Positions 4,218 through 64,000 of a DNA stretch of 64,000 nucleotides are shown here, piece after piece. Position 1 is the stretch's first letter; each line of letters begins with the position of its first letter. The position numbers and the translations under genes were made by a program. The notes under the pieces are model-generated. The model was not told where the DNA came from. It worked only from the letters and a program-made list of their open reading frames with translations, and searched no databases. The DNA comes from Acidobacteriota bacterium. Its GTDB lineage: Bacteria; Acidobacteriota; Blastocatellia; UBA7656. The DNA is taken from positions 65,864 through 129,863 of the forward strand of contig JACQDB010000030.1 of NCBI GenBank assembly GCA_016201275.1, read 5' to 3'.

Positions 4218-4248
4218 AAAAAGTTTTCAACCTCATGACCAAGCTCAA

Positions 4249-7186: not shown

Positions 7187-7217
7187 ACGAGGCGGCAGAG
7201 GGTTCACAGGGCTGCGC

Positions 7218-8336: not shown

Positions 8337-8476
8337 CTCGCTTTCCTGAAATCAGAATGGTGCTGCGTGAACGGGACGTGGGGCAAAGAGCGCTTGGCGA
8401 GGCGACAGTAATTTTGTCCACGTTGCGCCAGCCGTTTTGTTCGCATTGCGCCAGCGCTGGTCACCAAGACAGACCT

Positions 8477-10464
<1,988 letters not shown>

Positions 10465-10489
10465 GATCGTTATTGTTCCGAATTGAAAA

Positions 10490-48462: not shown

Positions 48463-48539
48463 AGCCTCTTCTCCTATTTCTGCTATGCTGCATACGTTGA
48501 ACGCTTGCTGCTAACACATCAGCATCGTCAAGGTGCCAG

Positions 48540-49799
48540 CTACCGAATGATGCCGCGTTGAATGGTCGTCATGCCAAAGCCTTGCAGAATGGTGCCGCCA
48601 ATGCTCCGCATACGACTGCTGGGAACCACGACCAAATCATCTGCTTGTAACAATATGTCGGACTTCTTGCCGCTCATCACGGCGTCTATGTCCACAGTGA
48701 TTTCCAATTGTTTGCCGTCTTCGTTATTGCCGCGAAAGATCACGGCGCGGCTTCGCGCCGCTTTAAAGGTCGTGCCTTGCGCCAGCGTGATGGCTTGACG
48801 CAAAGTGGTGCCTTCTTTCAAAGGGAACGAACCGGGGGCATTGACTTCGCCACCGATAAAGAAGACATTGAGCGCTGGAATGTTCACCACATCGCCCGGC
48901 AACAAGGTGATGTTCTGACTGAAGCGGCCTCTTTCCAAGCCGTTGATGTTGGCTCGAATCATTTCGTAATCCTGATTGTCGGCGGCGACTTCCGTCGCCG
49001 CCGTGGTCGCAGGCGTAGTCGCCACCGGCATCGCTGCTTCAGCGGCGGTCGTCTGTTTGGCGCTGACCGCCTCCACGCTGGCAGCGTCCGTGGTCATTGG
49101 CGCACGTTGTTTGCGCCGTATGATAAAGGCGTTGGGGCCGTGATTTTCCATCATGCCTCCAGCCAACACAATCAAATCCAAAATCGTGACTTTGCCGCGA
49201 ATCTTATAGGCTCCGGCAGCGTGCACCGAGCCATGAATAAAAAAGGTGCGGCTGTTATATTCGGTGACGTTGACGCTGATGCGTGGGCGCTTCAAATAAT
49301 CGGCCTTGATGAGCGCCTCGCGGATGCTGGCCGCCAATTGGTCGGGAGTTTTATTGACTGCCAGCAATTTGCCTATGACCTGCATCTCGATGAACCCGGC
49401 AACGCTGACGGTATAGGATTGTGATAACTCCGGCGCGTCTTCGATCTTAACCGTCAAGACATCCGACGGGCCTATGTAATAATCATCCTGCGACACCACC
49501 CAGACATTGGACGCCGAGTTATTTCCCGGCGCAGCATTTTTGCCTCGGTTGTCATCCTGACTATTGGCCGACGCGGATTGCTGCTGCGGTTGTGACTGAG
49601 CGCTGGTGGACAAGCCTGCAAACATCAGCGCCAATAGCGCCATGCCCAAGATCGCGGCGACAACGCCGGTGGGTTTTCGGCTGCTGACAAAGCCGCGCCT
49701 TGTTGGCCTGCGGTTTTTATATCGCTTGATGAGGTTTGGTCTATCGCTAGGTTGTGTGGTCATACTGCCTCCAGAACGATCCGTTGATTGATGCACCAT
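48540..49799 (-). CDS. wza: Outer-membrane polysaccharide export protein (OPX)
   Basis: PES-motif region YYIGPSDVLTVKI and two SLBB-like repeats (VSVNVTEYNSRTFFIHGSVHAAGAY...). N-terminal signal/anchor. Confidence 0.8.
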   Translation of the reverse strand: MVHQSTDRSGGSMTTQPSDRPNLIKRYKNRRPTRRGFVSSRKPTGVVAAILGMALLALMFAGLSTSAQSQPQQQSASANSQDDNRGKNAAPGNNSASNVWVVSQDDYYIGPSDVLTVKIEDAPELSQSYTVSVAGFIEMQVIGKLLAVNKTPDQLAASIREALIKADYLKRPRISVNVTEYNSRTFFIHGSVHAAGAYKIRGKVTILDLIVLAGGMMENHGPNAFIIRRKQRAPMTTDAASVEAVSAKQTTAAEAAMPVATTPATTAATEVAADNQDYEMIRANINGLERGRFSQNITLLPGDVVNIPALNVFFIGGEVNAPGSFPLKEGTTLRQAITLAQGTTFKAARSRAVIFRGNNEDGKQLEITVDIDAVMSGKKSDILLQADDLVVVPSSRMRSIGGTILQGFGMTTIQRGIIR

Positions 49800-49817
49800 T
49801 CCGTACTTGACTTGCGG

Positions 49818-51239
49818 TCAACGGGTCTCCCGCATCAAGGCTTTGCCGACGCCTAGCGCGGCAAAGAGCGTCTGCCCTGCGCTGCTATTGGTTGACGTAT
49901 CTTCATAACGCCTGACCTGTTCTACGGTCTGTGATAACAGCGCCACAAGCAGGAAGAAGAGCAAAGTATTTGAGGGCAATTGGAGATTGAAATCAAATAG
50001 GCTATGCACCAGGATTGCAAATACTCCCGCGCCGCTGCCCAGCGTCAGAGCGGCCAGCAAAGGGTCTCGCGCTTTCAGACCGCGAAGCAATTCGCGAAAG
50101 ATGAGCGCCAAAAACCACAAAGCCAGCAAACCACCTGTCAACCCGGCGTCGGCCAGCACTTGTAAATAATCGTTATGTGCTTGCCCAACGATCAACGCCC
50201 CATCGCTGTGGCTGTATTGCGGATACGCAGTTGCAAATCCACCGAGGCCAACGCCCAGCACCGGATTGGCCTTTATCATAGCCCAGGTGTCTTTCCATAT
50301 CCAGCCTCTGCTGGTATAAAAAGTTTCCTCTTGATTGGTAGCGCCCAAGACCGCGCCGCCCGTCAAGCGTCCGACCAGGCGGTCTGGCCCAACCCACAAG
50401 ACGCCCAACCCAAGAGCCAAAAGAATCGCTACGCTCAAGGCCAGCCCTTTTATCCAAGTCACGGCACGCGGCTGCAACGTCAAAGGCGCGTGCCGCCGCG
50501 CTCGCCGCTTCATTCGCAACATGATTTTGCAAAACCCCATGAAGGCAATCGCCGCCGCCAGACTGACCATGCCGCCGCGTGATAACGAAGCGACCGCTGC
50601 TGTACTCATCACCAGCGCCGCGAAGCCGTAAAAGAGTCTGGCTTCCAACTTCCTGCCTTCCGCCCAGGCCAACGCCAGCGCCAACGGAATCAGCATCTCC
50701 ATGTAACCGGAAAAATGATTGTGGCTGACGAAGGGGCCAAAGGGCGATGCGCCATTGAGATTCGGTTTGAACCAATAAAATCGCCCGTTCCAAGTGAAAA
50801 ATTGCACCAGCGAGAACATCGCCAAGGCGACGCCATAACCGACCAGAAAATTCACCACGCCGTAAAGCCGGGTTCTGCTCACCAATAGATTGATCGCCAC
50901 CAATAGAAAGACGGTCAGACAAAACAGCATCAATACTGCCCGTCGCGTCGCCTCTACATTTCGCGATAGGCTGTGCATCTCGCCGACGCTATCACTGACC
51001 GCCAGCCCCTGCACCAAGCCGACCAACAGCAAGGCGAGGACCGGCAAAGCCAGCGGCGGCAATTTCAAGGTCAGACTTTTCTGCGCTATCAGTTTGGCGG
51101 CCAAACCCAACAGACTGAGAATGCCGAGCGCCTCAAAAACGGCTACCGACCAGGCTTCTACGACGCCCTGTGCCAGCGCCGAAAAGACCACCGCAAACAG
51201 TAAAATGACGAGTAAAGTTCTTTCAAAAAACGCTGTCAT
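49818..51239 (-). CDS. O-antigen ligase-family (Wzy_C domain) membrane protein
   Basis: 473 aa, about 12 TM helices. The periplasmic loop with ...HNHFSGYMEMLIPLALAL resembles the WaaL/Wzy_C catalytic loop. Confidence 0.6.
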   Translation of the reverse strand: MTAFFERTLLVILLFAVVFSALAQGVVEAWSVAVFEALGILSLLGLAAKLIAQKSLTLKLPPLALPVLALLLVGLVQGLAVSDSVGEMHSLSRNVEATRRAVLMLFCLTVFLLVAINLLVSRTRLYGVVNFLVGYGVALAMFSLVQFFTWNGRFYWFKPNLNGASPFGPFVSHNHFSGYMEMLIPLALALAWAEGRKLEARLFYGFAALVMSTAAVASLSRGGMVSLAAAIAFMGFCKIMLRMKRRARRHAPLTLQPRAVTWIKGLALSVAILLALGLGVLWVGPDRLVGRLTGGAVLGATNQEETFYTSRGWIWKDTWAMIKANPVLGVGLGGFATAYPQYSHSDGALIVGQAHNDYLQVLADAGLTGGLLALWFLALIFRELLRGLKARDPLLAALTLGSGAGVFAILVHSLFDFNLQLPSNTLLFFLLVALLSQTVEQVRRYEDTSTNSSAGQTLFAALGVGKALMRETR

Positions 51240-51696
51240 AATTTGGCGGTCGAACCGCGCCCATCCACCACGCCTCTAGCTCCGGACACACTGCGGCCAT
51301 GTCTTATTAAACCCGCAAGGGAAACCGCACCAGCGGCAAGTAAAATTTTCAAGCTGATCTGCAACATTGTTTCTCCCCACACTGATCATGCGCCTGCCCA
51401 TAGGTAACGGCACAGTAATCTATAAAAGGGCTAATCTGGTGAGGGAGAAGAGAGGGCTCTTGAACTGGTCTTCGGAAATTGCAAGCCTGCTATTTCGATC
51501 AACCGCATCATCTTGATTGTTTCAAAGATTCTCTGATCCTGCTTGAAAATCAAGGCTCTGCTATTTTCGTTTCTTTGAAAATCAAGTCTTTGGGCTGTAG
51601 AGACACATTCTATGTGCATGAAAAAGATGCGTCAAGCAAAGTGCCTACCGATACCTGATTTATTCGTTCTTTCAAGCGTCTCTGCGGCCTCTGGCA

Positions 51697-52395
51697 TCAT
51701 CTGGCTCCGAGGCTAACCAGTCGAGCGCGTCCCTGCGCCGTCAGATTGCGGAGCCGGGTCAAGGCCCCTATGCCGAATATGACCGGCGCTTCCGAGGCGG
51801 CGCTTTCCAAGCGTAAAAAGCCGGTCTGTTGTCTGCCGACTTGCAGCATACCGATTTTCAAACCACCGCGTGTCGTCAGAGAAAATTCCGTCGCCACATT
51901 TGACGCGCCGCTTTCTTCAGCGCCTTTACCATTGGCGGCTGGTGCTCCCGCAGGCGTTTCGCTATTGGCGTCAGCCGTTTTCACGAGGTGTTCCAGCGCG
52001 TTTTGCAGCGCCGCGACTTCATCGAAATCAACGAAGCGGATGGCCTCCGGTTGTCGCTCGCCGCCGCGATTCGACAGCCGTATAAAGCTTAGTCCATAGA
52101 CCTTCGCCGCTTCACCGAGCGCCGATAACACGATGGCTTCAATCTTGACTTCGGCTCCTTGCTGGCCGGGAAGACTGCCAATCGTTGTTGCCTCTTTGAT
52201 AATCAGAACATCTTTGCGTGCCAGAAATTTTTCCACTCTGGTGCCCGCTTCATCTTTCAACGTCGCCGTTGAATTTTCCGCAGCGCGTTTGGCGCGATCT
52301 TTTTCGGTGTCCTCTTTGAGAACCTGTCTGGCCGGAGCCAATGGCGCGCCCAGCAAAAACAACATAAGCAAAATGATCATTAAACGATAGAACAC
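51697..52395 (-). CDS. Hypothetical secreted protein (signal peptide)
   Basis: N-terminal MFYRLMIILLMLFLLGAPLAPA signal, Ala/Gly-rich middle region. No recognisable domain. Confidence 0.4.
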   Translation of the reverse strand: MFYRLMIILLMLFLLGAPLAPARQVLKEDTEKDRAKRAAENSTATLKDEAGTRVEKFLARKDVLIIKEATTIGSLPGQQGAEVKIEAIVLSALGEAAKVYGLSFIRLSNRGGERQPEAIRFVDFDEVAALQNALEHLVKTADANSETPAGAPAANGKGAEESGASNVATEFSLTTRGGLKIGMLQVGRQQTGFLRLESAASEAPVIFGIGALTRLRNLTAQGRARLVSLGAR

Positions 52396-52440
52396 TTTTT
52401 TCTCCGCAATATTTTGACTGACACTCTAATCATAAAAATT

Positions 52441-52571
52441 GGGGTAGTGGAGCAAGGAGGAGAGAGGGAGTTTGGCGTACCGCCTTCCGACGGGTTTATG
52501 GTTTGCGGCAGCCGCCGCCTGAAGGCGGTACGCCAAACTTTTCTTTTCTCTCCCGATTGACCCACTACCGT
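52441..52571. mobile_element. MITE-like palindromic repeat, family B, short copy (TIR GGTAGTGGAGCAAGGAGGAGAG...GTTTGGCGTACCGCC)
   Basis: Terminal inverted repeats read directly. Related to the longer element at 58474-58755. The spurious ORFs 52380-52733 and 58662-58898 share the peptide FRRRLPQxIxPSEGxTPNS. Confidence 0.5.
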
Positions 52572-52641
52572 ATGGGCGACCAGCGCAGGATCACTCGTAC
52601 CAGGTTGCACTTTATTTGCTCCACAATCATAAGGGAATTCT

Positions 52642-53310
52642 TTAATCCCGATCACATTTTTTAAGCTGGTCCTTGTTTGAGAAGCGCATCGCCATCGGTT
52701 TTGATCGTCCTCCCTCAGTCCATAAATAGCCATAATTCAGCCAGCGTTTTTTTAACTCTTCCAGATTGTTGTCATAACTAAATCGCCCGCTTATTGTCCA
52801 GATACTGAACTGTGCGTAATGCTCATTTACACTGAAATGCTCATATGCCAAGTTTGGATGACCATCAAGATCAAAGAAAAATAAAACGGTTTCAGCCTTT
52901 TGCTCATAATCATCTCCCGGTTTTAGTATCAGGAAATCTTCACTCGGAAAGTCGCCTTCTGGTTTTGTGGAGCGAGACGTTATGGCAAAATCAATATTGC
53001 CTTCCATTTCGTACTGCCCCGATTCGGCATCTTCTTGGGTATGGGCAACCATTTCTCTGCCAATAGTCCCACTCTTTTTGTGAAGAATAATCGGATAGCT
53101 GCCGCTGTTGGCGTACTTCGTTTTGAGTTTCAAGTCTATGCGGATGGGTAGCAGCTTACTTTCCCGCAGACATTCTTTTTGTGCCACCACAGAGGTTGTA
53201 ATTTCAAGGTTGGCTCCAACTTTATTCTTGATGCTTGACTCCCTCTCTTGTGCAAATGTGAGGATAGGAATAAGCAATAAGTTCAGCAAGAACAAAATGA
53301 GTTTATTCAT
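52642..53310 (-). CDS. Hypothetical secreted protein in a low-GC patch
   Basis: MNKLILFLLNLLLIPILTFAQ signal peptide. AT-rich codon usage unlike the neighbours. No recognisable domain. Confidence 0.4.
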   Translation of the reverse strand: MNKLILFLLNLLLIPILTFAQERESSIKNKVGANLEITTSVVAQKECLRESKLLPIRIDLKLKTKYANSGSYPIILHKKSGTIGREMVAHTQEDAESGQYEMEGNIDFAITSRSTKPEGDFPSEDFLILKPGDDYEQKAETVLFFFDLDGHPNLAYEHFSVNEHYAQFSIWTISGRFSYDNNLEELKKRWLNYGYLWTEGGRSKPMAMRFSNKDQLKKCDRD

Positions 53311-53361
53311 AGCAACCTTTTTGAAACGAACTTCATGCTTGAGGGCTATGCTTGAGCAAAA

Positions 53362-54111
53362 TCAATTTCCGCTTTTGGCGCTGGCCAGACGCTGCGACGA
53401 TTTGCTCACGATAATTTGATTGTACGAGGGGAATGTCTCTTTTGCCGTTTCGGAAGCCCTGGGAGTGGCTACCGTGTTTACCGGCAATGGCGCAAGGTTC
53501 GAGCGCAAGCCCGCGTAACGCGAATAGATGGCGCGCACATAATTCTGGGTTTCCGAAAAAGGCGGTATGCGATTGCCGTAAAACTCGACCGCGCCCTCAC
53601 CGGCATTGTAAGCGGCCAGTGCCAAGCGCACATCGCCGTTGAAGCGTTCCAGCAACCAGCGCAGATATTTGGCACCGCCTAAAATATTTTCCCGCACATC
53701 GAAAATATTGCGGACCCCAAAACGCATCGCTGTCGCTGGCATCAACTGCATCAATCCCGAAGCGCCTTTGGGCGACACCGCATTGCGATTGAAACCCGAT
53801 TCGTGGCGCATCACCGATAGAATCAAATATGGATCGAGGCCATGCGTCATAGCGGCTTCGCTGACAAACCCATCTATCGCTGCATTGCCCGAAGAGATGC
53901 GTCCGCCTATTGCGGCGGGAATCCTGACCACATTCGTTGCCGGAGTGGGCGTCACCGCAGTTGGCTTTGCTACGGCTTCGGCGCGCCTCTGATTCTGTTG
54001 TTCGCCGGTCAACGGAACCGGCGGGATTTTAGGCGGCGACAGCGGCCCCTGCGCCTGCGCCGAAAGGGTGGCGATGAATACCACTGCAAGAGATAAAAAA
54101 ATCTTCGACAT
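53362..54111 (-). CDS. Lytic transglycosylase (SLT domain)
   Basis: Signal peptide, then ILSVMRHESGFNRNAVSPKGASGLMQLMPATA...AAYNAGEG (catalytic Glu in ES motif). Confidence 0.85.
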   Translation of the reverse strand: MSKIFLSLAVVFIATLSAQAQGPLSPPKIPPVPLTGEQQNQRRAEAVAKPTAVTPTPATNVVRIPAAIGGRISSGNAAIDGFVSEAAMTHGLDPYLILSVMRHESGFNRNAVSPKGASGLMQLMPATAMRFGVRNIFDVRENILGGAKYLRWLLERFNGDVRLALAAYNAGEGAVEFYGNRIPPFSETQNYVRAIYSRYAGLRSNLAPLPVNTVATPRASETAKETFPSYNQIIVSKSSQRLASAKSGN

Positions 54112-54117
54112 AAAAAC

Positions 54118-55122
54118 CTATTGCACCACTAATCTGGCAATTTCCAGATTATCATCACCACGCAGCAAAAGCACCAGTCTTTCTTTGGCGGCGACCAGCT
54201 TGGCGTCGAAGGCGATCACGCCCGTCAAGGTTTCCGAAGGGGCAAGCGTATTTTCAGGTTTCGATTGATTCAACTCCACAGGAATCGGCTGCGAGGCCTT
54301 GAGCGCCCCCGATTCCAGGGCGATAGCGGCAAAGGTGAAATCTTTGTCGCTGGCGTTTTGAATGGTATAACGCAGATAGGATTTCCCGGCAATCGTGAAC
54401 ATATCCGAGGCAAGCGTGATGATCACTTTTTTGATTTCGAGGCGCGGCGTTTTGACCTCGGCTCGCTGGACGCCGCCCAGCAGCGTTTGAATAAAACGGC
54501 GTTCCATTTCCTGCGAGCCGCGTCCGCTGGCTTGGCGTTCGCTTTCCGCAGCGCGGCTTTCGGCTTCGCTGGTGATGCGATTGGCATCTTCACGCGCCTT
54601 GCGAAGAATCTCGTCGGCCTTGGCCTGTGCCGCCTGTTCGATGGCGACTTTGCGTTTTTCCAGATCGGCTTCCGCAATGCAGGGCTTGTCTGCGCCGCCA
54701 GTGGTCGGCGGATTTTCCGGCGACGCCAGGCCGGTTTTCGGGTCTAGCACATTAATCACTCGATGCGCCTGATTGAACGGCACTACCGAGAGATCGAAAT
54801 TGTAGGTCTTTCTGCCATCGCCGGTTTTGACGAACATATTGCTTAAGCCTTTCGGCGCAATCGGTTTGATAAACACATCATTGTCGCCCTGCTGCACCAC
54901 GAACGTGCCTTTGCCGCTCTGCTGGTCATAGAGATCGCCGCAGACCACTGAAGTGACCTTGTCGGGAAAAGTAATGCGCGTGGTAATAGAGACCGCAGTC
55001 CGCACACTACAGGATTGTTCCGGTGCCAGGGTGACGGATGTGATTTGCGCTTTGGCTTCGATGTTAAGCACCGAGGCCAACACCGGGATAAGTAAAACCA
55101 GATACTTCGCTACGGCTTTCAA
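54118..55122 (-). CDS. Secreted two-domain protein with central coiled coil; N-domain resembles VirB9/TrbG/CagX beta-sandwich (tentative)
   Basis: Signal peptide. The stretch ITFPDKVTSVVCGDLYDQQSGKGTFVVQQGDNDVFIKPIAPKGLSNMFVKTGDGRKTYNFDL follows the VirB9-like pattern (F.D..I..V..GD...W.V....N.LFIKP......N..V.T..R.Y.F.L). Only a pattern-level match. Confidence 0.35.
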   Translation of the reverse strand: MKAVAKYLVLLIPVLASVLNIEAKAQITSVTLAPEQSCSVRTAVSITTRITFPDKVTSVVCGDLYDQQSGKGTFVVQQGDNDVFIKPIAPKGLSNMFVKTGDGRKTYNFDLSVVPFNQAHRVINVLDPKTGLASPENPPTTGGADKPCIAEADLEKRKVAIEQAAQAKADEILRKAREDANRITSEAESRAAESERQASGRGSQEMERRFIQTLLGGVQRAEVKTPRLEIKKVIITLASDMFTIAGKSYLRYTIQNASDKDFTFAAIALESGALKASQPIPVELNQSKPENTLAPSETLTGVIAFDAKLVAAKERLVLLLRGDDNLEIARLVVQ

Positions 55123-55372
55123 GTTCTCGCCTCCTAACCTGCTTTATGCTTCTGGCGAAAGTGGGGGAGGAAACCAGAGCATATTAAAAATTGCCGGATG
55201 ATGCCCTATTGTGACAAAGACTCCCTCACGAAATCAAGATATAAGTTGTTGCCTGCTTAGATCCCTGGCCGCAACCGCTGTGCAGCAAGGTCGGCTTGCC
55301 CTCAACAGCGGCAGTCCCTGGTTGACGAGTGTAGAACCGCGCCGCGCTACAGTGAATTGCCGTTTCCCTGAT

Positions 55373-55499
55373 TTAGAGCGGTTTTTGTTTGAGATTACGG
55401 AAACCTCAAACCCGTTGAGCGACGGTCGAAGACCCTCGCGGTCGAAGACCGCTGCTCAACGATAAGGTGTTCCGTACACCCATATGAAAACCGCTCTAG
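55373..55499. mobile_element. MITE-like palindromic repeat, family A, copy 2
   Basis: ~95% identical to 7058-7186. TA flanks on both sides. Ends 3 bp from the glgP stop codon. Confidence 0.6.
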
Positions 55500-55502
55500 T
55501 CT

Positions 55503-57974
55503 TTACTCCACATTTCTCATGTAGCGCTTGATGTTCCAAATCTCTCTGGCGTATTCCAGCACGGTGCGGTCGCTGGAAAATTTGCCGGTGCGCGCCACAT
55601 TCAAAATCGCTTTGCGCGACCACTCCTCTTGATTCAGATACTCCTGTCCGGCGCGCTCCTGCGCTTCGATATAAGAGGGCAAATCCGCCAGATGATAATA
55701 GTGGTCGCCGTAATTGAGGATGGCGTAAAACAGCCAGTTGAACAACCCCGGCTCGCCCGGATTGAAGCGGTCGGAGTTCAACGAATCCATCACTCGCTTG
55801 AGCCGCGCATCACGATAATAATAGTCCCAAGGGTTATACGAATTGGCTTCGCGCATAGCTTGAATCTCCGGCGCAGTCAGACCAAAGATAAAAATATTAT
55901 CGTCGCCCACCTCCTCTTTGATTTCGATATTCGCGCCATCGAGCGTTCCCATGGTCAACGCGCCGTTCATCGCAAATTTCATGTTGCCGGTTCCCGAAGC
56001 CTCCATTCCGGCAGTCGAAATCTGTTCGCTGAGGTTGGCCGCCGGAATGATTTTTTCCGCCAGCGAAACGCGATAATCGGGAATGAAAACTACTTTAATG
56101 TATTCGTTGGCGCGTGGGTCGTGGTTGATAACCTGACCGAGATTGTTGATTAATTTGATAATCTGTTTGGCCGCCCAATACCCCGGCGCGGCTTTACCGG
56201 CGAAGATGTAGGTGCGCGGCACCACGGGCGTCCGGTTGTCTTCGACCAGCGAGAAATAGTCGTGAATGATTCTCATGCAATTGAGCAGTTGGCGTTTGTA
56301 TTCGTGCATTCGTTTGATATGAACATCGAACAGCGAATCGGGATCAACGGTGATGGCGCAGGTATCTTTGATGACCTTTGCCAGACGCTCTTTGTTGGCG
56401 TGTTTGATGCTGCGAAACTCCTGCTGAAACTGTTTGACTTCGGCATATTGTTCCAGTTCGCGCAACTCATCGAGTTCCATAATCCAGCCATCGCCAATCG
56501 TGCTGCTGATTAATTTCGCCAACGCTCGATTGGCTTTCAACAACCAGCGGCGTTGCGTCACGCCGTTGGTTTTGTTGTTGAATTTCTCCGGCCACAGTTG
56601 ATAAAAATCCGGCACCAGAGAGTGCTTGACCAACTCCGTATGCAAGGCCGAAACGCCGTTGACCGAATGGCTGCCGACGATGGACAGATGCGCCATGCGT
56701 ACTTGCGGGTCGCCGTCTTCGGTGATGATGGACATACGTTTGGCGCGCTCGAAATCCTCCGGCCAAACCATCGCGACGCGCTCCAGAAAACGGCGATTGA
56801 TTTCGCGTATGATTTGCAGATGGCGCGGCACCACCTGTTCGAGCAGAGAGACCGGCCAACGCTCCAGCGCTTCTGCCATCAAGGTGTGATTGGTGTAGCC
56901 AAAGGTCGCCTGTGTGGTCTCCCAGGCCGCGTCCCAATCCAGCTCTTTTTCATCAATCAACACGCGCATCAACTCGGCGATGGCCAGCGTCGGATGAGTG
57001 TCGTTGAGTTGAATGGCCACCTTGCTGGCGAACGGCTGAAAATCGTCATGCGTTTTGTGATACCGCCGGATGATGTCTTTGATGGCGCAGGCCACCAGAA
57101 AATACTCTTGCATCAAACGCAGTTCGCGGCCTGATTTCACCGAGTCCGAGGGATAAAGAACTTTGGAAATGGTCTCGGAGGTAATCTTCTGCTCGACCGC
57201 TTTCATGTAATCGCCGCCGTTGAAAATGTCCATATCGAATTCCTGCGACGAGCTTGCCGTATAGAGGCGCAGATAATTCACCGTGCGTCCGCCATAGCCG
57301 ACGATGGGAAAATCGTGCGGCACGCCGATGACGATTTTGGCATCCTTCCAGTTCGGGTGATATTGAAACTGGCCGCCCTGAGCGCTTTCAATGCGCCCAT
57401 AAACCGGAATCTGGCAGGCGTAATCGGGGCGCTTGATTTCCCAAGGCGTGCCGTAAGCCAACCAGTGATCGGGGTCTTCTTTTTGAGAGCCGTTACGGAT
57501 GACCTGTTTGAACAGACCGTATTCATAGTTGATGCCGTAACCGAAACCCGGCATATCCAAAGTGGCAAGCGAATCCAGAAAACAAGCCGCCAGCCGCCCC
57601 AGCCCACCATTGCCTAGCGCTGCATCGGGTTCGATTTCGCGCACCTCTTCAAAATCCACGCCCATTTCGATGAGGGCGTCGCGGCACACTTCAAAAGCGC
57701 CCATGTTGATGAGATTGTTGCCGAGCGAACGCCCCATCAGAAATTCCATCGAAAGATAATAAACGCGCTTGGCATCCGATTGCCGATAGCGGTCTTCGGT
57801 TTCCAGCAATCTGTCCATGATGCGGTCGCGTGCCGCCAGCGCCACCGCGTAAAACAATTCTCGCGGCAACAAATCCGTCCACGCTTTGCCTATCGAATAA
57901 CGCACATGTTCGAGCAGCGACTCCTGAAACGCCTGCACGGTATTGTCCAACTCCAAATCCTTCTCGCTAACCAT
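55503..57974 (-). CDS. glgP: Glycogen/alpha-glucan phosphorylase (GT35)
   Basis: 823 aa. ALGNGGLGRLAACFLDS and the PLP-Lys region ISTAGMEASGTGNMKFAMNGALTMGTLDGANIE. Confidence 0.95.
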   Translation of the reverse strand: MVSEKDLELDNTVQAFQESLLEHVRYSIGKAWTDLLPRELFYAVALAARDRIMDRLLETEDRYRQSDAKRVYYLSMEFLMGRSLGNNLINMGAFEVCRDALIEMGVDFEEVREIEPDAALGNGGLGRLAACFLDSLATLDMPGFGYGINYEYGLFKQVIRNGSQKEDPDHWLAYGTPWEIKRPDYACQIPVYGRIESAQGGQFQYHPNWKDAKIVIGVPHDFPIVGYGGRTVNYLRLYTASSSQEFDMDIFNGGDYMKAVEQKITSETISKVLYPSDSVKSGRELRLMQEYFLVACAIKDIIRRYHKTHDDFQPFASKVAIQLNDTHPTLAIAELMRVLIDEKELDWDAAWETTQATFGYTNHTLMAEALERWPVSLLEQVVPRHLQIIREINRRFLERVAMVWPEDFERAKRMSIITEDGDPQVRMAHLSIVGSHSVNGVSALHTELVKHSLVPDFYQLWPEKFNNKTNGVTQRRWLLKANRALAKLISSTIGDGWIMELDELRELEQYAEVKQFQQEFRSIKHANKERLAKVIKDTCAITVDPDSLFDVHIKRMHEYKRQLLNCMRIIHDYFSLVEDNRTPVVPRTYIFAGKAAPGYWAAKQIIKLINNLGQVINHDPRANEYIKVVFIPDYRVSLAEKIIPAANLSEQISTAGMEASGTGNMKFAMNGALTMGTLDGANIEIKEEVGDDNIFIFGLTAPEIQAMREANSYNPWDYYYRDARLKRVMDSLNSDRFNPGEPGLFNWLFYAILNYGDHYYHLADLPSYIEAQERAGQEYLNQEEWSRKAILNVARTGKFSSDRTVLEYAREIWNIKRYMRNVE

Positions 57975-58090
57975 CTATGAAAATCCTTCCACTGTTTTAT
58001 TATGGCTCTGCAAAGCGGAAAAGCCAGACTCTTAAAAACCAATGAATCTAGCATAATCGTGCCTCACCAGCCAAAGCGCTTGGGCGGAGA

Positions 58091-58360
58091 CTAAAATTCT
58101 TCTTCATCATTTTCCACGGCGAGGATTTCATAAAGCGTCGCGGCCTGCGCTTTGGTGGGTGGTTTGAGAGGAACATCCAGCACCCGAACCGTGGTGCGGC
58201 GTCCGTGCTGTTTGAGGGTGAGAGTATCGCCAACGCGCACTTCGCGGGCGCTTTTGGCAAGGGCCTGATTGAGCCTGATCGCGCCCGCTTCGCACAACTG
58301 CTGCGCCACGGTGCGGCGCGGAATCAAGCGGGAAAGTTTTAAGAAAATATCCAGACGCAT
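58091..58360 (-). CDS. S4-domain RNA-binding protein (Hsp15/YlmH-like)
   Basis: 89 aa. MRLDIFLKLSRLIPRRTVAQQLCEAGAIRLN...VRVGD matches the S4 fold consensus. Confidence 0.7.
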   Translation of the reverse strand: MRLDIFLKLSRLIPRRTVAQQLCEAGAIRLNQALAKSAREVRVGDTLTLKQHGRRTTVRVLDVPLKPPTKAQAATLYEILAVENDEEEF

Positions 58361-58473
58361 GATGTATAGTCGCCCATCGCCCCTTTGATGATGCCCAATC
58401 GGGCGCGGACGCTTTCGGTTTGGCCTTGTGTCTTCGCCTTTTTCAGTCTAGCAGTCAGCGCCCACAAATCCCA

Positions 58474-58755
58474 GGGTAGTGGGGCAAGGAGGAGAGCAAA
58501 GAAAAGTTTGGCGTACCGCCTTCAGACCAATGGCGTTAAGTTGTACCGCCGACGGTCTAGTCTGCGGCTGACAGCAGCAAGCTACGACTGGGATTTCGTG
58601 CGCTTCTGCCACCAAGTCCGCCGCCGGCTAGACCGCCGGCGGTACCGTTTTTCTTAACTTCATGCCATTGGCCTTCAGGCGGCGGCTGCCGCAAGCCATA
58701 AAACCGTCGGAAGGCGCAACGCCAAACTCCTTCTCTCCTCCTTGCTCCTCTACCC
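58474..58755. mobile_element. MITE-like element, family B, long composite/nested palindrome copy
   Basis: Left arm GGTAGTGGGGCAAGGAGGAGAG...GTTTGGCGTACCGCC and right arm GGCGCAACGCCAAAC...CTCTCCTCCTTGCTCCTCTACC are inverted copies. The ~120-bp centre is itself palindromic (GTTAAGTTGTACCGCCGACGGTCTAG...CTAGACCGCCGGCGGTACCGTTTTTCTTAAC). Confidence 0.5.
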
Positions 58756-59373
58756 GAAAAGGTTTTGCTGCAAGTAAATATTGGGCGGCGCTGCCGCGAG
58801 AGTGGGGAGCATCGCTTACGGACAGGCGCAGCCTTTCCGCACCTCAAAGCGGCACCGCCGCACAGAGTTCAACTCTCACAACTAAGCTGGGTAGTTAGAG
58901 GTTGTCGCATAAAAGGATTTTCTGTCCAGATATTGTATGTGATAGTGTAACTATCTACAACATATAGACGGCTGCGGGGATTCTGCGACGCCCTTTAATT
59001 ATCAATAAGCTTCCTATTTACTCAGTGCACAGCGCGATGGCTTCGCGTAAAAAAGTCGGCGGGTCGCGTTTCGGCACAAACTCGTGCGCCAGATAACCGG
59101 TGAAGCCTCTCGCCACAATCGTTTTGCACAGTGCCACTCAAGGCAACTTCTGCGCGTCGTCTAGTTCGTTGCGACGCTTTTTTGAAGCCGAGGTCGCACC
59201 CCTCGTTCGCGGCTCCGTTTGACCACGAGAGATGCGCGAAATAGAAAGCGGCAAAACCGCTTTGACAGCCATTCGGATTGCGTCTAAGATTGCCCCCAGA
59301 GCGGTAAAGAGCGGAACGGGAAACAAAAATAAGAACGTAGCAATCACGGATGGTAACGATAAGGAGTGCGGCT

Positions 59374-60057
59374 ATGAAGCATCGTTTGAAATGGATGCTC
59401 ATCGGGCTTGGTTTCACGTTTGGCATTCAGGCGGCCATCTCGCTGCTGGCCAAACTGCTGTTCGGCAAGGCGCAATCTTCGCAAGGCACTATATTGATTT
59501 TACTCTTCGGCCTGACCTTGGGAGCCTTCCTCGTCGGCGGCTTTGTCATCGGCTTGATGAGCGAAAAAATCCGCCTGCTGGATGCCGCCCTCGTCGCCGT
59601 GTTGACGCTCGCGTTCAATACCGTTTTGTTGACGCTGACCTCGCCGACCAGCGGTAATTTTATTGCCATGAACTGGCTCAACGATGCCTACGGTCATCTG
59701 TTCATCACGGGTCAAAGTTTTCTCTACATCGTGCTGGCGCTGGCATCGGCCATGGCGGGAACTTATCTCGGCTGGCGCATCATGACGCCGCAAGACGGGC
59801 AGTTCGACCGCATCGCTCTGCTGGTCGGGTTGATGGGCGCGGTCATCGGTCCCTTCGTCTTATTTTCGTTTGATGGCAGCGAGAGCGAAAGCGCCAGCGA
59901 CCAACAATTCCCCTGGTATTTTCTGGTCTTCGTCATTCTGCTGGTCTTGGTCATCATGGGCATAGGCTTTTTGATGTTCACCCGCGAAACCCACGACGCC
60001 GACGAGATTTCCATCAACCCGCACAAGGGCGATGAATATTTAATCGAACCCAAATAA
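59374..60057 (+). CDS. Hypothetical integral membrane protein (only plus-strand gene in the window)
   Basis: AAGGAG RBS 6 bp upstream of ATG 59374. Six hydrophobic segments and an acidic SESESASD loop. Confidence 0.5.
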   Translation: MKHRLKWMLIGLGFTFGIQAAISLLAKLLFGKAQSSQGTILILLFGLTLGAFLVGGFVIGLMSEKIRLLDAALVAVLTLAFNTVLLTLTSPTSGNFIAMNWLNDAYGHLFITGQSFLYIVLALASAMAGTYLGWRIMTPQDGQFDRIALLVGLMGAVIGPFVLFSFDGSESESASDQQFPWYFLVFVILLVLVIMGIGFLMFTRETHDADEISINPHKGDEYLIEPK

Positions 60058-60091
60058 TCAGCAACTCACAATGCAAATCGAAGGAGAGGGA

Positions 60092-60145
60092 GTTGAGAAG
60101 CGGTCTTTGACTGCGCTTTCCGACGGTCAAAGACCGCTTCTCAAC
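60092..60145. terminator. 20-bp perfect inverted repeat hairpin (GTTGAGAAGCGGTCTTTGAC / GTCAAAGACCGCTTCTCAAC) between convergent genes; terminator-like but without a U-tract
   Basis: Read directly. The core GTTGAG..GCGGTC...GACCGC..CTCAAC resembles the internal palindrome of family-A repeats. Confidence 0.4.
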
Positions 60146-60190
60146 AGTGCAATTCAGCACTCATCAAAATCACTCCAGCACACGAAGTCA

Positions 60191-62131
60191 TTAAATTTCA
60201 CCGCTGACTTTGCGTAACTCTCTGGCGATTTCGGCGGCGGACTGGTAACGCTCTGTAGGCGTCTTTTTTAACAACCGCTCGATGATGGTAATCAACGAAG
60301 CGGGGGCGTCTTTGCGTAATTTTTTAATCGCTACCGGAGCGCGTTTGTTGATCGTTTCGATGGTCTGAAAATAGGTGTCGCCTTCAAAAGGCAAACTGCC
60401 TGTGGTCATTTCATATAACACCACGCCGAACGAAAAAATATCAGATAGGTGGGTGACCTCGCTGCGTCCGGTCGCCTGTTCGGGCGACATATAATTCACC
60501 GTGCCAAGCAAAACGCCCGATTCCGTGAGCCTGTTTTTGGGCGTGCGCTCACTTAACAACGGCGTCGGTTTGGCCAGTCCGAAATCCAGCACCTTCACCT
60601 TGCCGCGTGAAGTAATCATGATATTGGCCGATTTAATATCGCGATGAATGACGCCGCGTTCGTGCGCTTCGGCCAGCGCTTCGGCCACCTGTTCGCCAAT
60701 TTCCAACACCTCTTTCAAGTGCATCTGTCCGTTGTTAATCCGCTCGTTGAGAGTTTCGCCTTCGACGCATTCCATGACGATGTAGGGATTCCCTGCGGCT
60801 TCGCCGATCTCATAAATCGTCGCTATATTCGGGTGATTGAGTTGCGAAGCCATGCGCGCCTCGCGCAGAAAACGCTGCTTCATGGTGTCGTTTTCGACAA
60901 ACCGGGAGGCCAGCACTTTGATGGCCACCGTGCGTTGCAAATCGGTATCGTAGGCTTCAAAGATTTCGCCCATGCCGCCTGCTCCCAGCGAACGGTGTAT
61001 GTCGAATCTACCGATGTGGCCGTGCGGTTCGATCAACGGCGGCGCGGCGACCTTTTCGGTCTTGCCATCGTGAACCGCCATCGCCGCACGGTCGGTATCG
61101 CGCAACTCCGTGGTAATCAGGCGCGGACGCGAAATCACCGAGGAAAACTTGCTCGAAAACAGACGCGGACCGCGTTCGTCCTCAATGAAATAACCGGCGC
61201 GTTTGAGGTCTTCGTAAATATGTTCCTGCTCTTTTTCGACGCGGCTGTGTTCGACAAAACTGCGAATGGCGCGGCGCTGGCCTTCGCCCATCTTGTCCCA
61301 TATAAAACGGAATTGCCCTTTGGCTTCGTCCAAAAAATTCTCTTCGACCTCTTCGCGGTGCAACTTGCCGTCGTTTTCCAGCAGATAATCGAAGTAGGCA
61401 GAGCAGGCAATTTGCAGAAAATAGGGGAACTGTCCGGCGATTTCCATGATGCGCCGCGCATAATGTTCCAGCGACAAACCTTCTTCGGTGGACGGTTTGA
61501 CAATCAACTCCATAGCCTCTTTGCGCGAGAACGCCCGCAGAAAAACATTGGTGAAGATATTGAAGAACGGCGAATCGGCGATCAGTTGGGTGTAACAAAG
61601 TTCCTGTAAATCCCGCGCCGAACTGGTCACATAAGCGACATCGTAGTTGTTGGCAATCGAACGCAGGAAGGAATAGAACTCCAGATCGAAAGCGCGATTG
61701 GTGGTGATGACATCGAATTCATCAAACAGCACGATGAGTTTGCGGCCTTCATTGCGAAAGCGTTCAAGCAAGCCGCGCAGGGAATCGAAATTCGGTGCAA
61801 GGGTTTTGATAGAGTCGTCAGTTATCTCTTTGGCGATGCACAAAAACAGTTCGACGAAAAATTCCGTGAGCGTCAATTTGCGTTTCTGTTGCAGGTCTAT
61901 GAGAACGAAAATATAGGCTTCGGGTTTATCAAGGAAGCGCGCACGAATCTGCGCGTGATTGATAAAGTAGAGCAACGACGATTTGCCGATACGACGGTCG
62001 CCGACTACGGAGATGGATTGCGGACGCGAGGCGGCAAGGCGCGAAAAGATTTTCGCAACCTCACGCGAGCGCCCATAAAACTGCTCCGGCTCTTTGATCG
62101 CCACACGATTTAAGTATGGATTACGCGGCAT
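60191..62131 (-). CDS. Fusion protein: N-terminal AAA/ORC-like (ATPase_2/AAA_16-type) NTPase + C-terminal Hanks-type Ser/Thr protein kinase
   Basis: N-terminus FYGRSREVAKIFSRL...VVGDRRIGKSSLL (Walker A) and LIVLFDEFDV (Walker B). C-terminus LGAGGMGEIF, VAIK, HRDIKSANIM, DFGLAK, and SPEQ (kinase subdomains I, II, VIb, VII, VIII). Confidence 0.85.
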   Translation of the reverse strand: MPRNPYLNRVAIKEPEQFYGRSREVAKIFSRLAASRPQSISVVGDRRIGKSSLLYFINHAQIRARFLDKPEAYIFVLIDLQQKRKLTLTEFFVELFLCIAKEITDDSIKTLAPNFDSLRGLLERFRNEGRKLIVLFDEFDVITTNRAFDLEFYSFLRSIANNYDVAYVTSSARDLQELCYTQLIADSPFFNIFTNVFLRAFSRKEAMELIVKPSTEEGLSLEHYARRIMEIAGQFPYFLQIACSAYFDYLLENDGKLHREEVEENFLDEAKGQFRFIWDKMGEGQRRAIRSFVEHSRVEKEQEHIYEDLKRAGYFIEDERGPRLFSSKFSSVISRPRLITTELRDTDRAAMAVHDGKTEKVAAPPLIEPHGHIGRFDIHRSLGAGGMGEIFEAYDTDLQRTVAIKVLASRFVENDTMKQRFLREARMASQLNHPNIATIYEIGEAAGNPYIVMECVEGETLNERINNGQMHLKEVLEIGEQVAEALAEAHERGVIHRDIKSANIMITSRGKVKVLDFGLAKPTPLLSERTPKNRLTESGVLLGTVNYMSPEQATGRSEVTHLSDIFSFGVVLYEMTTGSLPFEGDTYFQTIETINKRAPVAIKKLRKDAPASLITIIERLLKKTPTERYQSAAEIARELRKVSGEI

Positions 62132-62161
62132 GAATTCTTCAACGCTCCCTCTGCTTCCGAC

Positions 62162-63106
62162 TCATTTCATATCCATTGCCAAAGAAAGTTGCACTTCGGT
62201 CTTTGGCTTTTTCACAGCTTGCTTGCCTCGGTTGCTGGCGGCAAAGCCTGCCTTAATCAACAACGCTTCGTCCATTTCGTTACGCAGGCTTTCGCTTGCA
62301 CCAACATGATAGAAATGACTGCATACGCGCAACTCAAAATCAGACCAACAGTCAACTACATGAGAGTTTTTTCGATAGCGGTTTTCAAGCCACATGGAAA
62401 CCGCAAATCCGCAAGGCAAGGACTTGGCCACAGCAGAAAGTTTCATTGCCTCTGAATCATCCCAAGCGTTGTAATAATCGGTGTGCCGCCCAATGTAGGG
62501 CGGGTCTAAATAAACGAAATCTTCCGGCTGCGCTTCCCCCACCACATCCTGCCATTTGGCAACGCGAAACTCCCAATCCAGGTCTTTCATTTGTCGGGTT
62601 GCCCAGCCCACTTGATTGACGATTTTTGTAATGTAGGTGGGCGCGAATCGTTGTGGCTTGTGACCGAACGGCACATTGAATTTGCCTTGACGATTGAAGC
62701 GCATGAGGCCATTGAAACAAGAACGATTGAGAAACAGAAAATCAAAAGGTGAGGCGAACTGATTGAAGCGTTCGCGCACTTCATAATAGTAATCCTGACC
62801 GCTGCGAGCGAGTTTTTCTCCTTCGCAAAACAGAAATTCCCGCACCGCAGCTTGATGGATTTCGCCGCTCTGAATCGCTTGATAAAACCTGATGATGTGA
62901 AGGTTGGTATCGGTGAGCAAGGCGCGCTCGGGCTGTAAATTGAACGCTACCACTCCCGATCCTAAAAATGGTTCAACCCAGCGCGCTTGCTCCGTCGCTG
63001 TCCATTTAATGCTACTGAAAATGAACGGCACTAATTTCGTCTTGATGCCCTGACACTTAATTGGCGGAACCTTTACTTGTCCGATTTGCAACGGCAGTGC
63101 ATTCAT
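62162..63106 (-). CDS. Dam-family (D12 class) N6-adenine DNA methyltransferase, M.EcoRV-like
   Basis: VPPIKCQGIKTKLVP and WVEPFLGSGVVAF (FxGxG), YYYEVRERFN, FLFLNRSCFNG, and DPPY. The blocks are collinear with M.EcoRV as recalled. Confidence 0.9.
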   Translation of the reverse strand: MNALPLQIGQVKVPPIKCQGIKTKLVPFIFSSIKWTATEQARWVEPFLGSGVVAFNLQPERALLTDTNLHIIRFYQAIQSGEIHQAAVREFLFCEGEKLARSGQDYYYEVRERFNQFASPFDFLFLNRSCFNGLMRFNRQGKFNVPFGHKPQRFAPTYITKIVNQVGWATRQMKDLDWEFRVAKWQDVVGEAQPEDFVYLDPPYIGRHTDYYNAWDDSEAMKLSAVAKSLPCGFAVSMWLENRYRKNSHVVDCWSDFELRVCSHFYHVGASESLRNEMDEALLIKAGFAASNRGKQAVKKPKTEVQLSLAMDMK

Positions 63107-64000
63107 TTTTGACCTCTTGGCGAAATATTTTTATAAGCGAAATAGGTCGCCAGATTTTTATAAGGCGGTTTTTCCAAATCCACGGCGCGAGCCATGTCAG
63201 AGGTGAGATAATACATCCAGTAATCGTCAAAGACCGCTTCGCCCAATGCTGCAAACGGCCCATTCCCAATTATCAGTTCGGCAATTGTCCAGACCGCGCC
63301 TATATTCTTGGTGTTGCCGCTTCCCGGTTGATGATTAGCGATTCGATATTTTGGTTGAACGAAAAACTCCACGTCTTTGATAACCGAAGGTATTTCTTCC
63401 AGGTCATCAAGAGAGTGCAATTTGAATTCACTGATTTTCGTATCTACTCTAGAATAAATCACGCCAAGCACAAAGTGACTGGCATACTCACCGTAAGGAA
63501 AGGTCGCATTCTTCGTCGAACTGCGATTGCGAAAGTAACCCGTAAACGCCCCCAACGTCATCGTGTTTACTTTCTCGGAATTGATGCGATAGGTACTTTT
63601 CAAATCTACTGCAAACTTGTTTTCGCTTTCATCAACGAAGGTTAAATCGGGATAGTGGTTCTGCTCACGCGAAAGAATCACTTTCAATTTGTGTTTGTCC
63701 GCAAAGGCGAGGAAATGCGGAAAGAGCATCAGTTCGATGAGTTTTGAAATGACTTTCGTATCGCCGGAAATCGTATAAACATTTTTGAAAATATCTATGA
63801 ACCCCTTTACCACCCAATCGCCGTTTTCACTGGAAATGAGCTTTTTATCATTGAGGTTTTGAATTTCTGCTTGAAGAAGTTTCAGGAAAGCGGTGGCTGC
63901 CTGTTTATCATCCTTGCCGCGCCCCCCGTTACTCCAATCCAGATTGCTGAGATTGTCTGGAAGGTCATCAACCGCCTTTCGCGCTTTCCCTGGCCGATGA
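63103..64000 (-). CDS. EcoRV-family type II restriction endonuclease; N-terminus runs off the window end
   Basis: The frame is open from 64000 down to the stop at 63103 (the ORF track shows only the part from an internal GTG). SGDTKVISKLIEL, QNHYPDLTF...VDLKSTY (PD-(D/E)xK) and GSGNTKNIG (EcoRV recognition loop GSGNTTNIG). 4-bp overlap with the methylase gene. Confidence 0.8.
   Translation of the reverse strand, partial: HRPGKARKAVDDLPDNLSNLDWSNGGRGKDDKQAATAFLKLLQAEIQNLNDKKLISSENGDWVVKGFIDIFKNVYTISGDTKVISKLIELMLFPHFLAFADKHKLKVILSREQNHYPDLTFVDESENKFAVDLKSTYRINSEKVNTMTLGAFTGYFRNRSSTKNATFPYGEYASHFVLGVIYSRVDTKISEFKLHSLDDLEEIPSVIKDVEFFVQPKYRIANHQPGSGNTKNIGAVWTIAELIIGNGPFAALGEAVFDDYWMYYLTSDMARAVDLEKPPYKNLATYFAYKNISPRGQK

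Follow-up and report, generated by a model that had tools for sequence, protein, structure and literature searches.

The 64,000-nucleotide stretch of DNA analysed here (the window) derives from an Acidobacteriota bacterium of the class Blastocatellia (GenBank assembly GCA_016201275.1, contig JACQDB010000030.1, positions 65,864 to 129,863 of the forward strand), and its final part carries a gene in which a nucleoside triphosphatase (NTPase) is fused to a protein kinase, just downstream of the two genes of a restriction–modification (R-M) system. A first-pass annotation, made from the sequence alone, had taken these genes together for a candidate defence island. Most probably the fusion gene does not belong to antiphage defence, and we read its product as the soluble output subunit of a two-gene signalling module whose other half, a membrane receptor, is encoded just past the window end. 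Coordinates beyond the window come from the source-locus contig L001 (Logan SRR12113411_48647, 11.6 kb), and the features of the locus are as follows, with lengths in amino acids (aa) or base pairs (bp).

60191..62131, minus strand: fusion of an nSTAND2 NTPase, winged helix-turn-helix, linker and Hanks-type serine/threonine kinase, 646 aa (open reading frame, ORF, and Pfam)
61112..62131, minus strand: N-terminal module of the fusion, residues 1-340, with NPY motif, P-loop NTPase core, helical lid and winged helix
60236..61003, minus strand: Hanks-type protein kinase domain, residues 377-632, catalytic motifs complete (Pkinase and motifs in the translation)
62132..62161, minus strand: spacer of 30 bp from methylase stop to kinase start, where the R-M insertion ends on its downstream side (by comparison with the empty site in relative L002)
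62162..63106, minus strand: Dam-family (D12 class) N6-adenine DNA methyltransferase, M.EcoRV-like, 314 aa (profiles and motifs)
63103..64000, minus strand: EcoRV-family Type II restriction endonuclease, cut by the window end (Pfam and structure-chain matches)
64088-68260, extended coordinates, just past the window end: membrane receptor gene, 1390 aa (contig L001)

The first-pass annotation described a single 646-aa protein joining an ORC/AAA_16-like NTPase to a complete Hanks-type kinase; such a protein is present, and searches with profile hidden Markov models (HMMs) agree with the description, nSTAND2 being the strongest NTPase family. Residues 34-288 belong to Pfam nSTAND2 (PF20702; E 4.5e-65, 220.2 bits, cut-off 24), the match spanning profile positions 1-269 of 279, whereas AAA_16 scores 32.9 bits, barely over its cut-off of 32.6, and ATPase_2 remains under its own (26.8 bits, cut-off 33.2). 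Residues 377-632 belong to Pkinase (PF00069; E 3.5e-52, 177.8 bits, cut-off 31.7). In the translation the Walker A (GDRRIGKSS) and Walker B (LIVLFDEFD) motifs of the NTPase are both intact, and the kinase has GAGGMG, VAIK, HRDIKSAN, DFG and SPE. The predicted structure of the N-terminal domain (pLDDT, the predicted local distance difference test, 86.9) consists of a P-loop core, a helical lid and a winged helix, after which a disordered linker follows, and this fold agrees with the nSTAND2 assignment; a sequence search of the PDB with the same domain gave no match to any solved structure, the fold search alone being informative. Hydropathy reveals no hydrophobic segment in the fusion, as expected of a soluble protein. 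The NTPase, winged helix, disordered linker and kinase make up its whole content, with no sensor repeats and no ligand-binding domain of its own.

These missing parts have counterparts in the receptor. Its N-terminus is hydrophobic, forming a signal or anchor segment, and its ectodomain comprises two CarboxypepD_reg domains (E 5e-23) and Reg_prop beta-propeller repeats (E 1e-44). One transmembrane (TM) helix at residues 971-990, with basic residues after it, leads into a cytoplasmic P-loop NTPase at 1027-1308 (Walker A GERRVGKSS, Walker B LLILLDEYE), which is followed by no output domain. The receptor NTPase and the N-terminal domain of the kinase protein are paralogs (25% identity over 310 aa, E 1e-19). 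The NPY, Walker A and Walker B motifs are kept in 29 kinase-side and 24 receptor-side orthologs, and fixed signatures tell the two sides apart, with T143, N145, R157 and S171 on the kinase side against E, K, A and G on the receptor side. Judged by their domains, receptor and fusion, whose adjacent genes have the same orientation, are complementary halves, the one a sensor and NTPase without output, the other an NTPase and kinase without sensor.

The pairing is conserved across relatives. A homolog search returned more than 120 full-length clusters (642-694 aa) that are 74-90% identical to the kinase fusion, all named clusters being from Blastocatellia or Acidobacteriota. The genes of the window were then compared by tblastn with 19 genome loci, 12 metagenome loci and the contig of the closest homolog (lineages are numbered with the prefix L); the metagenome scan for orthologous loci contributed only the 12 loci, mostly short. 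In all but one of about 25 related Blastocatellia lineages the kinase ortholog lies downstream of a receptor ortholog, at a distance of 12-620 bp (mostly less than 175 bp); of those found through the kinase, 19 have an informative upstream flank, and 18 of these show the arrangement. Gene order in the relatives runs from PPDK_N through receptor and kinase to a convergent 7-TM protein, the kinase being convergent with the ortholog of the 7-TM gene in nearly all relatives and PPDK_N lying further upstream in most. Identity to the window locus is highest in the neighbourhood for the kinase (74-90%), compared with 64-83% for PPDK_N, 53-81% for the receptor and 40-75% for the membrane protein. None of the 19 kinase-found lineages carries the R-M genes, and the kinase occurs with or without them; the 18 lineages with receptor and kinase and without R-M are L002-L011, L013-L016, L020, L032-L034 and L048. 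The kinase is a vertically inherited chromosomal gene with conserved non-defence synteny.

The R-M pair is an ordinary one of EcoRV type. The methylase belongs to the Dam/D12 families by profile (PF02086 D12 class, E 1e-41, 143.9 bits, cut-off 22; TIGR00571 Dam family, 178.3 bits, cut-off 114.85; PADLOC MTase_II, E 4e-119) as well as by the motifs FLGSG and DPPY in its translation, and shares 51.5% identity with M.EcoRV from plasmid pLG13. The ORF of the endonuclease continues past the window end and is 315 aa long on L001, with its start at extended coordinate 64050; the protein is identical to the 315-aa endonuclease annotated in an NCBI Acidobacteria metagenome-assembled genome (P0240). It belongs to the family of Pfam Endonuc-EcoRV (PF09233; E 5e-98, the full 315-aa ORF reaching 340 bits against a cut-off of 25), its residues 73-303 match solved EcoRV chains (E 4e-40), and in alignment with 1az4 it shows the catalytic PD...DLK and a recognition loop GSGNTKNIG where EcoRV has GSGNTTNIG. 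The two genes overlap by the 4 bp ATGA (63103-63106). The EcoRV-like operon of the first-pass annotation, with its 4-bp overlap and 30-bp gap to the kinase, is thus present in the sequence; its family assignment for the endonuclease holds too, with the correction that the ORF runs past the window end. No terminator-like site occurs in the 30-bp spacer (62132-62161), and a promoter and terminator scan returned no more sites than shuffled sequence and none within the intergenic gaps. Probably the R-M genes are co-transcribed with the operon as a passenger that uses its transcription, and their specificity is probably GATATC. The best reading of endonuclease and methylase is a separate, self-sufficient Type II R-M system.

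The endonuclease has a basic N-terminal extension of about 47 aa (63814-64000; L001 6485-6625) that is missing in its homologs of 266-270 aa. The relative L030 has a separate 63-aa ORF upstream of its endonuclease, which the extension loosely resembles (common MKK...LDWS...RGK); the resemblance points to an in-frame fusion of a small upstream gene to the endonuclease. The sequence GATATC is present once in the 64-kb window where 13.2 sites are expected, and 40 times against 65.5 expected in the pooled relatives without R-M. Many other 6-bp palindromes are strongly avoided across the whole window (1-64000) as well, for example GGCGCC (0 against 49 expected), TGCGCA (0 against 36), TTCGAA (1 against 30), CGATCG (0 against 16), ATCGAT (0 against 13) and GACGTC (0 against 10), while palindrome depletion in related genomes is much milder. 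The strong avoidance of so many palindromes suggests a genome that has lived with many restriction systems.

The manner in which the R-M genes came to lie between receptor and kinase can be followed by comparison with relatives. Where L002 has an empty site, a 49-bp spacer, the source locus has 1949 bp, beginning at the receptor stop codon and ending 8 bp short of the kinase ATG. The GC content of the R-M genes is 0.44-0.48 (endonuclease 0.44) against 0.52-0.55 in the flanks, and that of third codon positions is lower too. R-M genes occupy the receptor-kinase spacer in six lineages only, the window and five others located through endonuclease look-ups, and the idea of an insertion unique to the source lineage was dropped, since the same spacer is occupied in these five more lineages. 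The five closest endonuclease homologs that could be placed (72-83% identity) all lie in this same spacer, and two homologs at 68-69% identity lie in unrelated genomic contexts. The endonuclease tree is ((L045,L001),(L044,L026)), with L030 outside both pairs, and the kinase and receptor trees agree with it; L030 stands beside (L026,L044) in the midpoint-rooted kinase tree and has no sequence in the receptor tree. Pairwise identities run in parallel, with 81.9% for the endonuclease and 83.4% for the kinase between L026 and L044, and 74.1% and 77.3%, respectively, between L001 and L045. From these comparisons the simplest history is one old insertion in an ancestor, followed by co-descent with the flanks and many losses. 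As a new member of the EcoRV family the system is ordinary; what is unusual is its long residence inside an operon, a Type II system having persisted in an operon spacer while the flanks diverged to about 75% protein identity. It thereby offers a natural example on which the persistence and loss of R-M systems can usefully be studied.

The NTPase of the fusion is part of a large family. An exhaustive profile search with the N-terminal domain collected 5542 representative clusters at E<=0.001 and 449 at E<=1e-30, and the outputs of the 80 closest representative clusters were counted. A protein kinase is attached in 34 of them, a class-3 cyclase in nine, SpoIIE/PP2C in five, a sigma-54 activator in two, an OmpR-type DNA-binding domain in one, TIR in five and caspase in three. 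With 34 of the 80 carrying a kinase, the NTPase-kinase architecture is common rather than rare; the fusion belongs to a common Pfam family, and the domains attached to that family suggest that it serves mainly in signalling.

Pairing of a receptor with an NTPase-output protein recurs in distant lineages, at 29-60% identity and with different outputs. The pair in L016 is distant (receptor 36%, kinase 49% identical). In L023 and L024 a receptor with Reg_prop and Y_Y_Y (the latter with E 3.6e-14 in L023) has an NTPase that is 48% identical, and is followed by an nSTAND2 protein, then by a protein with cNMP_binding and SpoIIE domains; the nSTAND2 protein bears the JGI name class 3 adenylate cyclase, and a cyclase domain goes undetected by Pfam in the L023 protein, so named by JGI only. 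The L023 locus (1-10750) has the appearance of a complete second-messenger cascade from receptor and NTPase through a putative cyclase to a cNMP-binding PP2C phosphatase, and a second pair, a receptor with an output-less nSTAND2 protein, lies just upstream. In another distant pair, in L042 (4362-9211), the stop codon of the first gene overlaps the start codon of the second; the first protein, of 815 aa, has its NTPase at the C-terminus, and the second protein is nSTAND2 fused to an alpha/beta-hydrolase (lipase-like) domain, an output that looks more effector-like than signalling-like.

The domain content of the two proteins, their paralogy, the conserved synteny, the pattern of R-M presence and absence and the congruent trees are direct observations, and the reading that we favour, with moderate confidence, is that Blastocatellia have a signalling module of two genes, inherited vertically, that the fusion is its output subunit in the cytoplasm, and that a self-sufficient R-M system has been inserted between the two genes. 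Heteromeric assembly, the direction of signalling and kinase activation are inferred. A ligand outside the cell would be relayed through the single TM helix and change the state of the receptor NTPase, which would then assemble with the nSTAND2 module of the kinase in a nucleotide-dependent manner, as STAND and AAA+ proteins generally do. Assembly would concentrate the kinase domains and permit their activation by trans-autophosphorylation on the activation loop, after which the activated kinases would phosphorylate their substrates. The R-M genes would have entered the short receptor-kinase spacer in an ancestor, co-diverged with the flanks and been lost in most lineages.

Several points weigh against this reading. 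The link between receptor and kinase is drawn from adjacency and paralogy, which suggest a physical interaction and are not proof of it, and L012, the sole exception among the 19 lineages, has a kinase with unrelated genes upstream in place of the receptor. On the receptor, Y_Y_Y is not detected by Pfam, and a Y_Y_Y-like region is placed there through homology with the receptor of L023. TIR or caspase domains occur in eight of the 80 close representatives of the N-terminal domain, and the Pfam nSTAND families were defined in studies of conflict systems. As regards the insertion, the endonuclease, kinase and receptor trees are neighbour-joining trees of five taxa, and the closest kinase relatives, L048 (90%) as well as L002 and L032 (85%), are without R-M genes. 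No scar of an R-M insertion is seen in these three; under a vertical history the cassette must accordingly have been lost cleanly several times, unless relatives exchanged it by recombination. Finally, many other palindromes are depleted as strongly as GATATC in this genome and no GATATC depletion is seen in the R-M-bearing L026 and L044, so that the depletion, although it agrees with a GATATC specificity, is only weakly informative on the activity and specificity of the R-M system.

It is unlikely, although the best of the alternatives, that the cassette entered the spacer several times independently, the spacer being an insertion hotspot, possibly through IS200/IS605-type transposition. In the kinase tree the lineages with R-M genes are scattered, and the nearest relatives of the source locus are cassette-free and scarless. 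In L026-L029 and L044 the endonuclease has a Y1_Tnp gene immediately upstream; the IS200/IS605-type Y1 transposase gene stands between receptor and endonuclease at 9340-9849 in L026 and at 5396-5848 in L044, and may be a clue either to the entry of the cassette or to later insertions into the spacer. Other small insertions occur in spacers without R-M genes, with a 91-aa MerR-like ORF in L048 (8386-9000) and palindromic repeat elements of 100-175 bp in L005, L006, L007 and L033, and these indicate that the receptor-kinase spacer tolerates insertions. Against repeated entry, however, stand the congruence of the endonuclease tree with those of kinase and receptor, pairwise identities that track one another, the fact that the five endonucleases at least 72% identical all lie at this locus while those at 68-69% lie elsewhere, and the lack of a transposase and of terminal repeats with the cassette of the window, L030 and L045. 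The kinase is independent of the R-M genes in any of the insertion histories considered.

Turning from the insertion to the module itself, the fusion might act alone as a cytoplasmic STAND sensor-kinase, adjacency to the receptor reflecting co-regulation or a shared pathway only. Consistent with this, the kinase of L012 is kept without a receptor, and many members of the family are single genes with other neighbours, as in L021, where a Kelch protein is followed by an nSTAND2-SpoIIE protein. Against this, the fusion has neither sensor repeats nor a ligand-binding domain, and the receptor has a paralogous NTPase and lacks an output, so that the halves complement each other; the recurrence of the pairing in distant lineages with different outputs argues in the same direction, and action of the fusion by itself appears quite unlikely.

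Receptor and kinase fusion might also form a conflict system that is independent of the R-M genes and senses an external threat at the envelope, be it phage adsorption, a competitor or a toxin, which would elicit a protective or suicidal response mediated by the kinase. A counter-invader role has been predicted for two-gene operons in which both genes encode STAND NTPases, among them a two-gene STAND operon named 'nSTAND2' for which a hetero-multimer is predicted (Kaur, Iyer, Burroughs and Aravind 2021, eLife 10:e70394, PMC8195603). That system is mobile and proteobacterial, and its effector NTPase is eroded and fused to HEPN or GT4 after TPRs (PMC8195603). Family members with TIR, caspase or hydrolase outputs are further points in favour of a conflict role. 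An HMM built from ten diverse rows of the Kaur et al. alignment, with all filters off, nevertheless fails to match the fusion (E 1.1, not significant) and does not list the receptor, nor is the locus a mobile operon with an inactive NTPase and HEPN or GT4, Walker A and B being kept in all orthologs. Identity with the Kaur system through the shared Pfam name 'nSTAND2' was thus dropped, and the link is kept as an analogy only. Both NTPases are intact here, inheritance is vertical, synteny is fixed and the sensor is extracytoplasmic; the outputs of the family are mostly ordinary signalling domains, and in one relative the output is wired to a cNMP-binding phosphatase, which amounts to a regulatory cascade. 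A conflict role for the pair is accordingly quite unlikely.

The defence reading of the first-pass annotation fares worse still, and with it the suggestion that the fusion is an abortive-infection gene or an accessory of the R-M system. The R-M pair is the sole defence system at the locus, its neighbours being glycogen phosphorylase, an S4 protein, the membrane protein, the receptor and PPDK_N, and the flanks are syntenic across the class, whereas a defence island would have several unrelated defence systems side by side, a content that varies between relatives and hallmarks of mobile elements. The co-occurrence with R-M genes that the annotation had proposed to look for gave a divided answer, as adjacency of kinase and R-M recurs in six lineages and is absent in the 19 found through the kinase; the recurrence is accounted for by common inheritance of an old insertion. 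Chromosomal homologs in conserved non-defence synteny, which the annotation had named as the outcome that would speak against its proposal, are largely what was found. A PADLOC search, also proposed there, yielded no model that fits the fusion beyond generic similarity of the kinase domain. PD-T4-6 matches kinase residues 373-643 with E 1e-91, in the kinase domain only, and NCBIfam PknB covers the same region with 308 bits; on fusion and R-M genes together, matches are to the kinase domain (PD-T4-6, mad6) and to the R-M genes, plus a weak one to PDC-S27 in the N-terminal domain. The receptor has no PADLOC match and the N-terminal domain has weak partial matches to the P-loop of PDC-S27, receptor, N-terminal domain and neighbours otherwise giving R-M genes only. 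The fusion is no member of NCBIfam MAD6 (167.3 bits, cut-off 460) or PglW (86.5 bits, cut-off 990). To our knowledge, EcoRV-type R-M systems need no accessory proteins. That the NTPase-kinase is an abortive-infection sensor or effector, or an R-M accessory, in a defence island is therefore highly improbable. In its favour, six lineages have the kinase beside one and the same clade of R-M genes, there are defence systems with kinases, of which PADLOC models (PD-T4-6, mad6) match its kinase domain, and some nSTAND2 relatives carry TIR or caspase domains, but a defence gene would be expected to turn over fast and be patchy, whereas this kinase is R-M-free in all 19 kinase-found lineages and the best-conserved gene of its neighbourhood, its PADLOC matches are confined to a kinase domain that generic PknB matches equally, with MAD6 and PglW far under cut-off and the N-terminal domain giving only weak partial PDC-S27 matches, its adjacency to the R-M genes is explained by co-descent, and no other defence genes are nearby.

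With the defence reading set aside, what would have been a new kinase-based antiphage system turns out to be a likely false positive of guilt-by-association discovery of defence genes, and the locus illustrates that adjacency to R-M genes in several genomes can arise simply through inheritance of an old insertion. The module itself, read as a receptor with a paralogous NTPase and a kinase fusion, looks like a new form of STAND-type signalling. The usual view of STAND-type NTPases is of sensors that work in the cytoplasm; at this locus, and in distant lineages as well, an nSTAND2-type NTPase seems to be divided over two proteins, a receptor in the membrane and a partner that carries the output. 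More tentatively, such pairs may constitute 'split STAND receptors', an undescribed kind of transmembrane signalling in which an extracytoplasmic propeller sensor would make two paralogous NTPases hetero-oligomerise in a nucleotide-dependent manner and so switch on interchangeable outputs, a serine/threonine kinase here and a cyclase, PP2C phosphatase or hydrolase elsewhere. If confirmed, this would add a signalling route with swappable outputs for the poorly studied Acidobacteria. A less likely twist is that the embedded R-M genes are expressed under the control of the envelope sensor.

Downstream of the kinase, the locus continues with two further features:

60092..60145, no strand: hairpin with 20-bp arms between the convergent kinase and membrane-protein genes (folding energy, repeat comparison)
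59350..60057, plus strand: membrane protein with about seven TM helices, 235 aa, convergent with the kinase (hydropathy)

The hairpin had been taken for the boundary of a defence element. It is real, with perfect 20-bp arms, a folding energy of -45 kcal/mol (z -7.6) and no U-tract, and its role as a boundary was rejected: the two convergent genes on either side of it adjoin each other in all relatives, so that it bounds no element, and it is itself absent from the loci of the relatives. Its arm has relatives with two mismatches at 7128 and 55441, within a repeat of about 120 bp. This repeat is a nested palindrome present in two copies (7040-7165 and 55374-55498), each at gene ends, with outer arms TAGAGCGGTTTTTG...AAAACCGCTCTA and an inner part that is a GC-rich hairpin, related to the hairpin at 60092-60145 by changes on both arms; it looks like a miniature inverted-repeat transposable element or a repetitive extragenic palindromic (REP)-like element. 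The 235-aa membrane protein (59350-60057) has no match in Pfam. Before it lies a stretch of about 1 kb (58380-59350) without a convincing ORF, in which nested inverted repeats occur at 58474-58755 (23-nucleotide arms, 87-91% complementary); Rfam and tRNA scans of 50000-64000, this stretch included, found nothing. Further upstream is a polysaccharide export cluster (46057-55122) with Wzz/GNVR and a ParA-like tyrosine-kinase-type ATPase, Poly_export/SLBB and a Wzy_C ligase, after which come an SLT transglycosylase and a protein whose CagX-like match is weak.

Neither an experimental study of a PF20702 family member nor a published module of receptor-NTPase and NTPase-kinase (receptor-STAND-kinase) was found in the literature searched, which covered few subscription journals. 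Known systems share parts of the arrangement. In contrast to EcoRV of pLG13, where the C and R genes are divergent from M, the R-M genes here are in tandem with the endonuclease first, overlap by 4 bp and come without a controller protein; the endonuclease has its N-terminal extension of about 47 aa, and the cassette is chromosomal and embedded in an operon. What the two systems have in common is the PD...D-x-K motif, the GSGNT-NIG recognition loop and methylases that are 51.5% identical. With PD-T4-6, MAD6 of MADS and PglW of BREX the fusion has a Hanks-type kinase domain in common, to which the matches are confined and where they are no better than those to housekeeping PknB; the conserved non-defence synteny also argues against membership.

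The fold of the NTPase is closest to archaeal ATPase_2 proteins (PABY2304, PDB 2qen; SSO1545, PDB 2fna) and, more broadly, to the STAND and ORC-Cdc6 AAA+ NTPases. Compared with STAND and nSTAND2 proteins, the fusion is without an array of sensor repeats (TPR, WD40, LRR) in the same polypeptide, and its output is C-terminal. The Kaur nSTAND2 system resembles the present one in having two adjacent genes for STAND-type NTPases, one of them with an effector or output domain, and differs from it in that here both NTPases are intact, one partner is transmembrane, the output is a kinase and inheritance is vertical.

A Hanks-type kinase and an AAA/STAND-type NTPase are also joined in PknK of Mycobacterium tuberculosis, in which an N-terminal kinase precedes a MalT-type NTPase and repeats; in the fusion, by contrast, the order is reversed, the NTPase is of another family and there are no repeats. 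On the receptor side, the hybrid two-component sensors of Bacteroides, which bind glycans, likewise have Reg_prop repeats before a single TM helix, and the L023 homolog has Y_Y_Y as well. The sensor of the receptor thus resembles that family, of which the protein as a whole is not a member, having Reg_prop and no histidine kinase. Unlike in the hybrid two-component systems, the cytoplasmic part of the receptor is a P-loop NTPase rather than a histidine kinase, receiver and AraC module, and its signal would be passed on to a separate serine/threonine kinase protein.

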